A program made the position numbers and the translations under genes. Positions 41,839 to 50,719 of a stretch of 64,000 nucleotides of DNA are shown here, piece by piece (the stretch's first letter is position 1; every line of letters begins with the position of its first letter). The stretch is from Candidatus Babeliales bacterium (lineage in GTDB: Bacteria; Babelota; Babeliae; Babelales; JBFXEV01): the NCBI GenBank assembly GCA_050179755.1, contig JBFXEV010000001.1, positions 361,994 through 425,993 on the forward strand, in the 5' to 3' direction. The notes beneath the pieces were generated by a model. That model saw nothing but the letters and a program-made list of their open reading frames with translations, was not told the DNA's origin and did no database searches.

Positions 41839-43554
41839 TTATGGTTTATTAAGAATTTCCAGAATACCATCCCAACGGGTTTTATATTTCCGCTGCAAAT
41901 TGTTCCATATTGCTTGCGCTTGTTTAGTGTTCATAACAGACAATTTTTTAAACAACCAATCAATATCCCATATACGTATTGTATTGTCATTTGCGGCTGA
42001 AACAAGCTTGTTGTCAGAAGTTGCGCATAATAACTGTACAGTCTTTTCATGACCCTTACAGACTACAAGCTTTTTACCCTGTGTATTCCATACGCATATT
42101 GTACGATCAAAAGATGCTGAAACAATCTTATTATCATGCGTTACACAAACCCTATAAACCACATCTGTATGGCCGTTACACACTGCAAGTTGGTTCCCTT
42201 TAATATCCAGTATGCGCACCGTGTTATCTTGCAAACCTAAGACTATTTTATCATCAGGCGTTATGCATAGTGGCATAACATAACTTTTAGAATCGCTATA
42301 TATACCATATTGATTACCTTGTATATCCCAGATGCATATTGTTTTAGGATTAAACGGTGAAACTATTTTATTTTCTGAGGTTACACATAATGAGTTGACA
42401 GAATTTGTATAACCATTGAACATGGTGCGTTGAGTGCCATCCAGATTCCAAATGCGTACGCTACCATCATCAGAATTTGAAACTATCGTTTTGCCATCTT
42501 GGGTTACACATACGGATGCAATAAATCCTGTATGACCCTCGCATAGCGCACTTTGTACGCCGTTCATATTCCACACACGTACGGTCGTATCACAAGACCC
42601 TGAAATTATCGTTGTATCATCGTCTGTTATACACATTGACTTAATGGCATCGGTATGACCATTACACACAGCGTGTTGAGTGCCATCTATATTCCATATA
42701 CGAATCGTACCATCTCTAGATCCTGAGACAATTTTATTATTACGGGTAATACATATTACATTAACGCAATCCGTATGCCCTCTACATATCGCATGCAGGA
42801 TGCGATCCCTATTCCATATACAAAGCGTGCCATCTTCAGATCCTGAAACTATCATACCATCGTCAGTTATACTTATTGCCCTAACTCGATTTGTATGCTC
42901 ATTGCGTATAACGCCACCTTGCTTACCATGCATCGGGCCCAAAATACAAACCATTTGATTTGCAATAATAAGGTTTCGAATTTCTGGAGGCAAGCTAGCA
43001 ATTTTATCAAAAGGAATCTTTTTAACATTCATTTCTTTTGCAGCATCAATTGTCAATGCTAATTCCAAAAGAAGTGGAATATCCAAATAATTTGCTGCTA
43101 TAATAAAGTCTATAAACGCAACAATATCAAAGGTTTGTATTTTAGCAATAATTTCTTGCTTAATAATATTTTTTTCTTCTTGATGGTCAGGTTGATCTTT
43201 AAATCTGGCAACTAACGGTAATAAGTCGTGAATCTTTTGCCATATAGATGCAGTAATAGTAGGAAGTGGAATTGCGTTATGCACCGTGTCATTTGCTGCA
43301 TCTTCCAGTAAATTCTTGATTGTCTCAGATAATTTTAGAAGCTTATCTGGAACTTTAAAATCTTTGCCATCTTGAGTGGTGATAGTGGAATAATCCTCAC
43401 TTTCCTGAACTGGCTCCATCCGCCGTTGCTCCTCTGGAGCGATGGCGCGATTGATATCACGACATAGCAATGGCGAAGTCGGATCCATCCCAAATGCAGA
43501 GCTTGCTCCGCATACTGCACCAAGTAATAAAATTAGTATATTTTTCTTTAACAT
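41839..43554 (-). CDS. Signal peptide + Skp1/BTB-like + F-box-like + WD40 protein, copy 5 (diverged repeats, no TM tail)
   Basis: TITTQDGKDFKV...SETIKNLLED...IPLPTI...AANYLDIPLL; SLPPEIRNLI; 8 WD40 repeats. Confidence 0.85.
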   Translation of the reverse strand: MLKKNILILLLGAVCGASSAFGMDPTSPLLCRDINRAIAPEEQRRMEPVQESEDYSTITTQDGKDFKVPDKLLKLSETIKNLLEDAANDTVHNAIPLPTITASIWQKIHDLLPLVARFKDQPDHQEEKNIIKQEIIAKIQTFDIVAFIDFIIAANYLDIPLLLELALTIDAAKEMNVKKIPFDKIASLPPEIRNLIIANQMVCILGPMHGKQGGVIRNEHTNRVRAISITDDGMIVSGSEDGTLCIWNRDRILHAICRGHTDCVNVICITRNNKIVSGSRDGTIRIWNIDGTQHAVCNGHTDAIKSMCITDDDTTIISGSCDTTVRVWNMNGVQSALCEGHTGFIASVCVTQDGKTIVSNSDDGSVRIWNLDGTQRTMFNGYTNSVNSLCVTSENKIVSPFNPKTICIWDIQGNQYGIYSDSKSYVMPLCITPDDKIVLGLQDNTVRILDIKGNQLAVCNGHTDVVYRVCVTHDNKIVSASFDRTICVWNTQGKKLVVCKGHEKTVQLLCATSDNKLVSAANDNTIRIWDIDWLFKKLSVMNTKQAQAIWNNLQRKYKTRWDGILEILNKP

Positions 43555-43641
43555 GTTATAACCCTTATATCCGAATCAGTTTCAAAACTGAGACGGGTTT
43601 AGCCCGAAGTAGCTAACTTTTATTAGCGAAGACGGGCCCAT
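43555..43641 (-). repeat. 87-nt intergenic double-hairpin repeat, copy 4
   Basis: Near-identical to 45280-45367, 47192-47278 and 48920-49006. Confidence 0.9.
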
Positions 43642-48919: not shown

Positions 48920-49006
48920 GTTATAACCCTTATATCCGAATCAGTTTCAAAACTGAGACGGGTTTAGCCCGAAGTAGCTAACTTTTGTTAGCGAAGACGG
49001 GTCCAT
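48920..49006 (-). repeat. 87-nt intergenic double-hairpin repeat, copy 1
   Basis: Same sequence as the other spacers. Confidence 0.9.
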
Positions 49007-50719
49007 TTAATTATTTGAATTATCGCTTGCAAACCACTTATATGCACACCAGCCAAGCACGCCAAGAGCGGCACCAGTGCCAAGCGCTACTGCTGCTCTT
49101 TGTAACAAATTAGTTGGCTCAACAACCGCTGCTCTTAGCTCCAAATTAGCTGGCTCAACTAATGCTGCTCTTTGAATCACCATTGTTGGCTCTTTCTGAA
49201 CCTCATTATCTACTGCTAATCCAAGAATTTTCTTAATTCCATTCCAGTCTTTTTTGTGATCACTTTGCAAATAGTTCCAAATTTCTCTCACTTGTTGAGC
49301 GCTTATTTGAGACAGCCAGTTAACATCCCACACGCGCACGGTGCCATCTACAGATCCTGAAACTATCTTCTTGTCAGCAGTTACACATACTGAATTAACG
49401 AGCTTTGTATGGCCATTGCAAACACTCAGTTGATTGCCTGCCACATCCCATACTCGCACAGTGCGATCTAGAGATCCTGAAACTATCTTAGTGTCCGGCG
49501 TTACACATACTGAGCTAACACTATCTGTATGGCCATTGCAAACGCTCAGTTGATTACCTGCCATATCCCATACTCGCACGGTGCCATCATAAAAACCTAA
49601 AACTATCTTATTGTCAGGAGTTACGCAGACGCACTTAACCCAATTTGTATGGCCATTGCAAACGCTCAGTTTTTGATTGCCTGCCATATCCCATACTCGC
49701 ACGGTGCGATCTATAGATCCTGAAACTATCTTATTGTCAGGAGTTACACATACTGAGCTAACACTATCTGTATGGCCATTACAAACACTCAGTTGATTAC
49801 CTGCCATATCCCATACGCGCACGGTGTCATCAACAGATCCTGAAACTATCTTATTGTCAGGCGTTACACATACTGAAGTAACCCGATTTGTATGGCCATT
49901 GCAAACACTCAGTTGATTACCTGCCATATCCCATACGCGCACGGTGCCATCACGAGATCCTGAAACTATCTTATTGTCAGGAGTTACACATACTGAAATA
50001 ACGCTACCTGTATAGCCATTACAAACACTCAGCTGATTACCTGCCATATCCCATACTCGCACGGTGCCATCATAAGATCCTGAAACTATCTTATTGTCAG
50101 AACTTACACATACTGATCTAACGACACCTGTATGGCCATTGCAAACGCTCAGCTGAACACCTGGCACAGGTCCTAGTAAACGAGTCATCTGGCCTAACGT
50201 AATGGGATAACGAATTTCCCTTGGCAATGCAGCAATCTGCTCAGAAGTTATATTTTTAATATCAGTTTGTTTTGCAACATCAATTGCCACTTGGAATAAC
50301 AGAGGGATATCCAAATAGTTTACTGCTGTAATAAAATCCATAAGATCGGCACCATCAAATGCTTGTATTTGCGCCTTAATTTGTCGTTTTATAGCTTCTT
50401 TTTCTTGGTGATGACCCACCGGTTGCTCTTCAAAATTCTCTACAAACTGCAATAAGCCTTGAATCTTTTGCCATATAGATGCAGTAATAGTAGGAAGTGG
50501 AATTGCATTATGCACCGTGTCATATGCTGCATCTTCCAGTAAATTCTTGATCGTCTCAGATAGCTTTAAAAGAGTATCTTGAACTGTAAAACTTTTACCA
50601 TCTTGCGTGGTGATAGTTGAATGATCCTTAGATTCTTGGAATTGACTTTCCATTCCAAATGCAGAGCTTGCTCCGCATAATGCACCGAACACTAAAATAA
50701 ATATATGTTTCTTAACCAT
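49007..50719 (-). CDS. Signal peptide + Skp1-like + F-box-like + WD40 + C-terminal TM protein, copy 1
   Basis: 7 WD40 repeats; RBS GGAGG; triplicated EPxxxxxRAA segment before the TM helix. Confidence 0.88.
   Translation of the reverse strand: MVKKHIFILVFGALCGASSAFGMESQFQESKDHSTITTQDGKSFTVQDTLLKLSETIKNLLEDAAYDTVHNAIPLPTITASIWQKIQGLLQFVENFEEQPVGHHQEKEAIKRQIKAQIQAFDGADLMDFITAVNYLDIPLLFQVAIDVAKQTDIKNITSEQIAALPREIRYPITLGQMTRLLGPVPGVQLSVCNGHTGVVRSVCVSSDNKIVSGSYDGTVRVWDMAGNQLSVCNGYTGSVISVCVTPDNKIVSGSRDGTVRVWDMAGNQLSVCNGHTNRVTSVCVTPDNKIVSGSVDDTVRVWDMAGNQLSVCNGHTDSVSSVCVTPDNKIVSGSIDRTVRVWDMAGNQKLSVCNGHTNWVKCVCVTPDNKIVLGFYDGTVRVWDMAGNQLSVCNGHTDSVSSVCVTPDTKIVSGSLDRTVRVWDVAGNQLSVCNGHTKLVNSVCVTADKKIVSGSVDGTVRVWDVNWLSQISAQQVREIWNYLQSDHKKDWNGIKKILGLAVDNEVQKEPTMVIQRAALVEPANLELRAAVVEPTNLLQRAAVALGTGAALGVLGWCAYKWFASDNSNN

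Follow-up and report, generated by a model that had tools for sequence, protein, structure and literature searches.

In Skp1-cullin-1-F-box (SCF) ubiquitin ligases, the IPLP and NYLDI blocks of the adaptor Skp1 are said, in a structure paper of 2002, to contact Cul1, and the canonical C-terminal domain of Skp1 consists of helices H6-H8, with a conserved acidic H8 and a Trp that clasp the F-box. The F-box itself is a three-helix unit of about 40-50 residues, and its consensus opens with LPxEI. SCF mimicry by intracellular parasites is an established theme, as is the hijacking of cullin-RING ligases by both bacteria and viruses. The bacterial cullin-RING hijackers covered in the accessible part of a Legionella review bring an F-box or a U-box and depend on the Skp1 of the host (PMC7542358), in agreement with what a preliminary description of the locus studied here had said of bacterial mimics. 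Here, we analyze a 64,000-nucleotide stretch of DNA from a Candidatus Babeliales bacterium (contig JBFXEV010000001.1, positions 361,994 to 425,993; hereafter the window), in which five tandem genes at 41839-50719 encode proteins with a predicted export leader, a Skp1-like domain, and a WD40 propeller. Unlike those hijackers, the array proteins carry the Skp1 module itself, fused to the propeller. We give a probability of roughly 55% to the reading that the five proteins are exported effector candidates of a Babeliales (Dependentiae/TM6) bacterium that parasitizes protists, acting as single-chain mimics of the Skp1 adaptor and the substrate receptor of an SCF ligase.

In functional terms, the nearest parallel to an array protein is a Skp1/FBXW complex merged into a single chain. 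Skp1 and its F-box/WD40 receptors (beta-TrCP, Fbw7/Cdc4) likewise combine the Skp1 fold with the top face of a 7-8-blade WD40 propeller, and the Skp1 chains of such complexes (e.g. 6m91, 7t1z, 3v7d and 6wnx) are the best fold matches of the N-terminal module. Unlike these complexes, each array protein is one polypeptide, has no detectable F-box or helical linker domain, carries an LPxEIR helix in place of H8, and is extended by a predicted leader for bacterial export and by a tag at the C-terminus. Legionella AnkB is also a eukaryote-like SCF component from an intracellular bacterium of amoebae and, according to the same part of the review, is anchored to a host membrane by a C-terminal signal (PMC7542358). 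It is described as a substrate of type IV (Dot/Icm) secretion. However, AnkB brings an F-box and borrows the host Skp1 (PDB 5k35, AnkB with human Skp1), whereas the array proteins bring a Skp1 module without an F-box and have a predicted Sec leader.

Giant-virus BTB/POZ-WD-repeat proteins (mimivirus R739 and R786, and those of megavirus and moumouvirus) share with the array proteins a POZ adaptor joined to a WD propeller in ~500 aa. They, too, form multigene families in parasites of amoebae, and they align with the array protein in Foldseek over ~490-560 columns at a probability of 1.00. Nevertheless, identity is 10-16% and the template-modelling score (TM) 0.36-0.46, with a large root-mean-square deviation, and the viral proteins are named BTB/POZ whereas the array proteins give Skp1_POZ and no BTB in Pfam. 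From the same phylum come the ankyrin and other eukaryote-like proteins of Babela massiliensis and Chromulinavorax destructans, which place an interaction domain behind a signal peptide, form expanded families, and are proposed to be secreted (PMC4378268, PMC6561590). The accessible parts of these two descriptions report F-box, RING, deubiquitinase and Ulp1-like proteins and mention neither a Skp1 homologue nor a Skp1-WD40 fusion, although their supplementary tables might list the domain. We also found no description of a bacterial Skp1 homologue or Skp1-WD40 fusion in open-access papers and preprints; subscription journals may hold one.

Results

A Skp1-like module at the N-terminus

The array consists of five intact, co-oriented paralogous open reading frames (ORFs) on the minus strand (Table 1), and each sequence motif quoted for them in the preliminary description (TITTQDGK, SETIKNLLED, IPLPTI and A(A/T/V)NYLDIPLL) is present in 5/5 copies. 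Over their full length the other four copies are 58-88% identical to copy 2, and P0006, a relative from outside the window, is 49% identical. Scanned on their own, the N-terminal pieces of 5/5 copies matched Skp1_POZ (PF03931) with scores of 37.3-40.5 bits, well above the cut-off (21.9 bits), and E-values between 3e-10 and 3e-9, the match of copy 1 scoring 40.4 bits over residues 57-108; the Pfam tables of the full-length proteins were filled by WD40 instead, and NCBIfam was uninformative. PF03931 also appears in the precomputed Pfam lists of two window copies and of one nematode match. A phmmer search of the PDB returned 31 matches at E≤1, of which 30 are Skp1 (best E 7e-9); query residues 34-162 align with ASK1 and with human Skp1, reaching position 135 of the 163-residue human protein.

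Foldseek with the full-length model retrieved only propellers from the PDB, and a separate AlphaFold2 model of residues 24-186 was hence built from a 57-row alignment. It has three strands and eight helices (predicted local distance difference test, pLDDT, 89.6; predicted TM, pTM, 0.85). Among the matches listed for this model in the PDB, 50/50 are Skp1 chains, from plants, human, yeast and Dictyostelium (query-normalised TM 0.50-0.63, 21-28% identity, E 1e-6 to 8e-5). No Elongin C or BTB protein is present in the PDB sequence matches or among these 50 listed fold matches. An Atlas search, which we treat as a lead only, gave Skp1 clusters at 0.85-0.87 and one Elongin C cluster at rank 30. Collectively, profile, sequence and predicted fold identify the N-terminal module as a genuine Skp1 homologue, as had been proposed from the sequence motifs.

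To what extent the module resembles eukaryotic Skp1 can be read from 32 alignment columns with ≥70% conservation among 36 Skp1 representatives of the eukaryote type. Twenty-three of them are retained in 21 bacterial sequences; they fall within residues 40-76 and 126-155, plus an aligned Met ahead of the domain, and cover the POZ core, the IPLP loop and the helix that bears NYLDI. The ratio of non-synonymous to synonymous substitution rates (dN/dS) of the module is 0.17-0.41 in 10/10 paralog pairs, which indicates purifying selection and thus a functional module. The preliminary description had suggested comparing the N-termini with Skp1, BTB and F-box profiles. In Pfam the outcome was mixed: Skp1_POZ was recovered, but the Skp1 C-terminal domain, an F-box (see below) and BTB (PF00651; none at E≤10 in the N-terminal pieces) were not.

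A linker helix in the place of Skp1 H8

The motif LP(R/P)(E/Q)IR, which links the Skp1-like domain to the propeller, is found in 5/5 copies, and L165 and P166 are invariant in the family. In the AlphaFold2 model of full-length copy 2 (pLDDT 85.7, pTM 0.74), the LPREIR stretch is predicted to form one helix of ~16 residues (167-182), and the first blade starts five residues on. When 16 fusions were aligned with eight canonical Skp1 sequences, the stretch TSEQIAxL fell on H7 (TPEEIRxxF) and the LPxEIRN helix occupied the place of H8, so that FTPEEEE(Q)..EN.W of canonical Skp1 is replaced by LPxEIRN...GP in the fusions. Neither the linker piece nor any of the five N-terminal pieces matched an F-box profile (PF00646, PF12937) at E≤10, and the likeness to an F-box is confined to the opening LPxEI. 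The F-box-like element that had been proposed for this region is therefore not upheld, although the linker helix might, judging from its opening residues, be a partial mimic of the first F-box helix.

Hypervariable repeat positions in the WD40 propeller

Pfam WD40 (PF00400) reports 6, 7, 8, 7 and 7 repeats in copies 1 to 5 (E 1e-46 to 6e-70), and seven blades are modelled in copy 2 (residues 188-464), in line with the propeller of 7-8 repeats given in the preliminary description. The full model reaches a target-normalised TM of 0.94 to the 7-bladed designer propeller 7big and of 0.87 to RACK1 in Foldseek. At the DNA level, Tandem Repeats Finder resolved the propellers of copies 2-5 into 6.9-7.8 copies of a 120-nt unit with 85-89% matches.

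We noted that the differences between these units are concentrated at a few codons. Across the 27 in-register repeats (of 28 found) in copies 2-5, entropy, used here as a purely descriptive measure, is 2.1-3.0 bits at repeat positions 5, 6, 8 and 23, 1.25-1.36 bits at positions 14 and 25, and at most 0.91 elsewhere. Pairwise codon differences at positions 5, 6, 8 and 23 are almost all non-synonymous, and in the array of a relative these four positions again vary most (based on 16 of the 23 repeats found there). A comparable pattern has been reported for the fungal NWD proteins HET-E and HET-D, in which near-identical tandem WD units evolve in concert and the position pairs 7/9 and 25/27, which flank conserved residues, are positively selected and map to the top face (PMC1805685, accessible part). 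The corresponding pairs in the array are 6/8 and 23/25, plus position 5, and by this analogy the hypervariability would be confined to predicted top-face positions. Unlike HET-E and HET-D, the array proteins occur in a bacterium, have export leaders, and carry a Skp1 module in place of the HET/NACHT NTPase; no NTPase (NACHT/STAND) domain was found in the copies. The idea of a receptor repertoire, put forward in the preliminary description, is strengthened by the variation at predicted top-face positions together with the dN/dS of the Skp1 module.

The propeller is followed by a helical cap, which is modelled with a pLDDT of 87-92 (10-residue block means). I479 is invariant in a 12-sequence alignment, and Q475, W480, Q484, W491 and L498 are nearly so. 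The cap motif is kept throughout the family, including relatives without the Skp1 module, and has no credible match in Pfam.

A predicted export leader

Each of the five copies begins with MLKK or MVKK and a hydrophobic stretch (hydropathy 2.6-2.8) that ends in SSAFG and is followed by M(E/D). By composition and hydropathy this is an export-type leader, as the preliminary description had it. M23 is invariant in 12/12 rows of a family alignment. An internal start at this Met was considered and not adopted, as the preceding bases (GCATTTGGG) contain no Shine-Dalgarno-like run. A lipoprotein reading of the leader was rejected under the lipobox rule, the Cys being preceded by Val.

The same type of leader (M, K/R, 12-22 hydrophobic residues ending in a small residue, then Met-Glu/Asp) is also present on unrelated ORFs of the window and of other loci, which indicates a general export leader of Babeliales; the leader of the array proteins looks phylum-typical, with a conserved Met at +1. 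Leader-bearing proteins of the phylum have been proposed to be secreted before. In the accessible parts of the respective genome papers, signal peptides are reported on 78% of the ankyrin proteins of C. destructans (PMC6561590) and on 79/126 of those of Babela (PMC4378268), and a type II secretion system is counted as part of the TM6 core (PMC4776705).

Family spread and C-terminal tails

A profile search of 1.84 billion representative sequences returned 579 matches at E≤1e-3, of which 50 reached E≤1e-10 and 13 reached E≤1e-30. An earlier view of the family as nearly unique, taken from a word-based search that found six proteins, was overturned by this exhaustive search. A second word-based search, with a 17-row alignment, was swamped by WD40 proteins (Nostoc STAND proteins, HET-E) and yielded only the relatives P0155 and P0156. 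Among the best 154 profile matches, at least 57 are leader-bearing Skp1-like proteins, as called by a crude hydropathy rule, and 29 of the 57 contain at least two WD motifs. At E-values weaker than ~1e-10, canonical Skp1 proteins of about 150-180 aa make up most of the matches.

A quick tree was computed from 142 of the 154 domain rows (12 short matches dropped), with a midpoint root and crude hydropathy and motif labels. It contains a 43-row clade with 37 leader-bearing rows (Shimodaira-Hasegawa-like approximate likelihood ratio test, SH-aLRT, 96) and a 77-row clade (SH-aLRT 97) in which every row with a canonical Skp1 tail is placed, alongside four leader-bearing rows. The label needs 14 changes on this tree, and a single origin is therefore not proved.

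In the genome under study, P0010 (AB7F19_04605, annotated 'hypothetical protein') is a sixth Skp1-WD40 member that lies outside the window; its identity to the array copies is 35-41%, its repeats are not homogenised, and its tail is KRRR. Two peptide patterns, run against species-representative genomes, located four loci in two Babeliales assemblies; this is no survey of taxonomic range. In OY970310.1, from a related member of the Babeliales, a larger array adjoins atpD, and Ham1 and PfkB lie farther out; the window shows the same arrangement. The OY970310.1 array has seven ORFs with Skp1-like N-termini, of which five are full-length and two are truncated or split, and a second locus of OY970310.1 holds three further family members. 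The position of the array by atpD in two genomes, with Ham1 and PfkB shared, the bacterial promoter-like site (Table 1), and the length of the contigs that carry the arrays (1.53 and 1.87 Mb) show that the genes are bacterial and not contamination. A more distant assembly encodes a stand-alone, leader-bearing Skp1-like protein of 161 aa (L004:9469-9951; Skp1_POZ 43.5 bits) next to a fusion of 524 aa (516 aa from a later start codon).

We also noted three leader-WD40-cap proteins without a POZ core in the OY970310.1 array (locus L001, 8662-9891, 11715-12692 and 12709-14112). They keep a stretch like H6/H7, followed by a BC-box-like xLxEQCxxxI and then LPxxxRN. One of the three N-termini, with the motif SLKEQCGRTI, matched SOCS_box at E 0.086 and 13.5 bits, below the cut-off of 23.5.

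By their C-termini, the family members are of three kinds: those that stop directly behind the cap, those with a basic K(K/R)x(K/R) tail, and those with a Gly/Ala-rich hydrophobic helix. The helix is present in copies 2-5, where it is followed by KW(L/F)(T/A)SDNSNN; its best 18-residue window has a mean Kyte-Doolittle hydropathy of 1.7-2.0, and in copy 2 AlphaFold2 predicts a helix for the segment, with a pLDDT of ~50. Copy 1 ends straight after the cap, and its hydropathy is 0.2. Hydropathy thus supports a hydrophobic helix in the four copies to which the preliminary description assigned a transmembrane helix, and we regard it as a candidate membrane anchor. Other holders of such a helix are P0008 and, by eye, P0090, P0091 and P0151. 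The basic motif occurs in the last 20 residues of 12/57 leader-bearing matches and of 0/28 canonical Skp1 sequences; it is also found in 2/62 other leaderless matches and in 2/7 WD-bearing matches for which no leader was called. Many members have acidic-basic tails, such as GERDTKRHKGDE or EPEQKKQKQGE, that look like a classical nuclear-localisation signal, where the window copies have the hydrophobic helix instead. Such a tail would make sense only in a eukaryotic cell, if its likeness to a nuclear-localisation signal is taken at face value.

Organization of the array and its surroundings

The four spacers between the genes are near-identical by alignment, and each contains a short GC hairpin, a T-run, and then AAGGG ahead of the ATG; the hairpin of one spacer (47243-47231) was called terminator-like. 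The promoter-like site upstream of copy 5 is the best of 18 such sites in a region that has fewer of them than its shuffles, and is a consensus match only. From this arrangement, transcription of the five genes as a single operon is plausible.

The N-terminus of copy 3 is a mosaic: it has the 22-residue insertion of copy 1 with flanking residues and is otherwise like copies 2, 4 and 5, which indicates exchange between copies. Some family members of the two genomes carry, in their N-terminal extensions, the motif DPTSP...(D/S)NHAI(A/T)PE(E)(Q/R)RR, which is found once within the propeller of a Skp1-less paralog (L001 12709-14112) and may act as a short linear motif that addresses a partner in the host. 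Copy 5 owes its extra length to a 36-nt tandem repeat (49087-49192, 2.9 copies) of the stretch immediately preceding the hydrophobic helix (EPANLELRAAVV / EPTNLLQRAAVA).

Elsewhere in the window, ATP synthase beta and epsilon genes are paired at 39113-40854 with no alpha or gamma gene upstream. Paralogous AAA_14/DUF4143 ATPase genes flank the array and atpD/atpC; one is split into two ORFs (37770-38042 and 38095-39024) and the other is intact (51012-52355). A ~26-kb block at 854-27078 is dominated by glycosyltransferases, among them six family-2 enzymes, together with DXD-type sugar-binding enzymes and a UDP-glucose dehydrogenase; ORFs without a Pfam match are scattered among these genes, and a MurJ flippase gene follows at 27461-29104. 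An IS605-family element, or what remains of one, is indicated by a TnpB-like gene on the minus strand (29871-30986; OrfB_IS605 and a Cas12f1-like TNB domain). An Rfam search of the whole window (1-64000) gave no family at or above its gathering score.

Table 1. Positions of the array genes, their domains and related features (window coordinates unless a locus is named)
Feature	Position	Strand	Description
Copy 1	41839-43554	-	571 aa; leader, 22-aa N-terminal insertion, Skp1-like domain, LPPEIR helix, heterogeneous WD40 propeller, helical cap
Copy 2	43642-45279	-	545 aa; leader, Skp1-like domain, LPREIR helix, 7-blade WD40, helical cap, C-terminal hydrophobic helix; copy chosen for modelling
Copy 3	45368-47191	-	607 aa; architecture of copy 2 but 8 WD repeats and an N-terminal insertion of the copy 1 type
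Copy 4	47279-48919	-	546 aa; architecture as copy 2
Copy 5	49007-50719	-	570 aa; architecture as copy 2, plus 36-nt tandem duplication before the hydrophobic helix; first in the direction of transcription
Copy 2 leader	45214-45279	-	residues 1-22; MLKK, 17-residue hydrophobic stretch ending A-F-G, Met at 23; pLDDT <50
Copy 2 Skp1-like domain	44782-45189	-	residues 31-166; POZ core and helices equivalent to Skp1 H3-H7
Copy 2 linker helix	44728-44787	-	residues 165-184, LPREIRYPITLGQMTRLLGP; joins the Skp1-like domain to the first blade
Copy 2 WD40 array	43888-44721	-	120-nt tandem units, 6.9 copies, 87% matches (Tandem Repeats Finder)
Equivalent 120-nt arrays	45624-46562 (copy 3, 7.8 units), 47525-48356 (copy 4), 49325-50163 (copy 5)	-	Tandem Repeats Finder
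Copy 2 helical cap	43786-43881	-	residues 467-498; motif QAxxIWxyLQ....W..I..IL; helices 467-470, 473-484, 491-498
Copy 2 hydrophobic helix	43663-43746	-	residues 512-539; Gly/Ala-rich segment, then KWLTSDNSNN; hydropathy 2.0
Intergenic spacers	43555-43641, 45280-45367, 47192-47278, 48920-49006	-	87-88 nt
Promoter-like site	50761-50788	-	TTGACA-16 nt-TATACT, upstream TG, 11/12 matches, ~40 nt upstream of the copy 5 start
DPTSP...RR motif sites	copy 1 43417-43485, copy 3 47054-47122; L003 10574-11518; L001 12709-14112		residues 24-46 in copies 1 and 3; internal in L001
Acidic-basic tail holders	P0006, P0009, P0010, P0012, P0017-P0021, P0027, P0042; ORFs of L001 and L003		
Unrelated ORFs with the same leader	57160-57777 (window); L003 12402-13721; L004 2531-2947, 5880-6143, 8779-9258, 14900-16009, 16023-17084	- (window ORF)	

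Discussion

If the array proteins are single-chain SCF mimics, they could work as follows. The Sec-type leader would export the protein from the bacterial cytoplasm, and type II secretion or outer-membrane vesicles might release it to the host, as proposed for other leader-bearing, eukaryote-like proteins of the phylum. The Skp1 module would then bind the N-terminal domain of host cullin-1 through its POZ core, IPLP loop and NYLDI helix, with no F-box protein required; such docking is plausible. The rigidly joined propeller would grip host proteins by its top face, so that they would be ubiquitinated or at least sequestered. A swappable C-terminal tag might set the location, with the hydrophobic helix directing the protein to a membrane and the basic tail to the nucleus, some members having no tag. 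Concerted evolution of the 120-nt unit, with diversification at four top-face positions, would supply a repertoire of specificities. The array would on this reading probably be a toolset for redirecting host protein degradation. More tentatively, and at a little short of even odds, we propose that a capture of eukaryotic Skp1 across the phylum gave rise to F-box-independent, single-chain receptors for cullin-1 with top faces diversified by repeat shuffling, similar to a repertoire of innate-immune receptors, with Sec export, and interchangeable tags for membrane or nucleus.

Several observations weigh against the reading as SCF mimics. Of the 32 conserved Skp1 columns, nine are missing: two belong to the variable region ahead of the NYLDI helix, and most of the others lie from the end of H6 onward. 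The Skp1 C-terminal domain (PF01466) was not reported at E≤10 in 5/5 copies. The lost columns mean that the module is not a full Skp1. The leader and the C-terminal helix were judged by composition rules and hydropathy, which are heuristics. A cleavable leader combined with a C-terminal hydrophobic helix is also a signature of an inner-membrane protein with a periplasmic domain, and a type II substrate is not expected to have a membrane anchor. The basic tail could serve another purpose, and none of the window copies has one. Lastly, the homogeneity of the repeats could come in part from recent expansion and not from selection.

These points bear on two other roles. The proteins could be inhibitors or decoys, in which the Skp1 module shuts down SCF activity by occupying host cullin-1 or trapping host F-box proteins, or the propeller merely sequesters its targets, not ubiquitinated, at a membrane or in the nucleus. 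Such a role rests on the same Skp1 homology; with the features of H8 lost and no detectable F-box, a productive substrate geometry is not guaranteed, and a membrane anchor or a nuclear tag would suit sequestration. However, a plain blocker needs no diversifying propeller repertoire, nor would it call for at least five paralogs in which a rigid linker and the cap are conserved, and we consider this explanation rather unlikely. Slightly less probable in our judgment is that the proteins stay in the bacterial envelope, with the leader cleaved and the hydrophobic helix stopping transfer, as periplasmic or surface scaffolds, or as variable adhesins that contact the host, with POZ used only as an assembly domain. 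That 4/5 copies join a leader with a C-terminal hydrophobic helix and a following Lys is real evidence for this location, and hypervariable surfaces would also fit a surface receptor. Furthermore, signal peptides are reported on 44% of the coding sequences of C. destructans, many of them those of envelope proteins, in the accessible part of its description (PMC6561590). Against an envelope location, copy 1 and most relatives have soluble ends, 12/57 have the nuclear-localisation-like tail, the helix is Gly/Ala-rich with a moderate hydropathy, and the Skp1-specific blocks are under purifying selection, which a generic scaffold would not require.

It is also conceivable, but quite improbable, that the module is akin to Elongin C or BTB and binds Cul2, Cul3, Cul5 or a bacterial partner, with LPxEIR as a cullin-box-like element. 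PF03931 also covers Elongin C, an Elongin C cluster was among the Atlas results, and the architecture is common to the giant-virus BTB/POZ-WD proteins; one Skp1-less paralog, moreover, has the BC-box-like motif and the weak SOCS_box match. That match is below its cut-off and in 1/3 of the Skp1-less N-termini, however, and the PDB sequence matches, the 50/50 listed fold matches and the presence of the helices after NYLDI that mark Skp1 all argue for Skp1 itself.

If the array proteins do act as single-chain SCF mimics, they would be the first bacterial mimics of the SCF adaptor rather than of its receptor. The F-box would then be dispensable for recruiting a substrate receptor to a cullin, and the fusions would offer a natural precedent for one-piece targeted degraders. 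With a hypervariable, concertedly evolving repertoire, the Dependentiae would in turn lend themselves to work on how parasites redirect proteolysis in one host after another.

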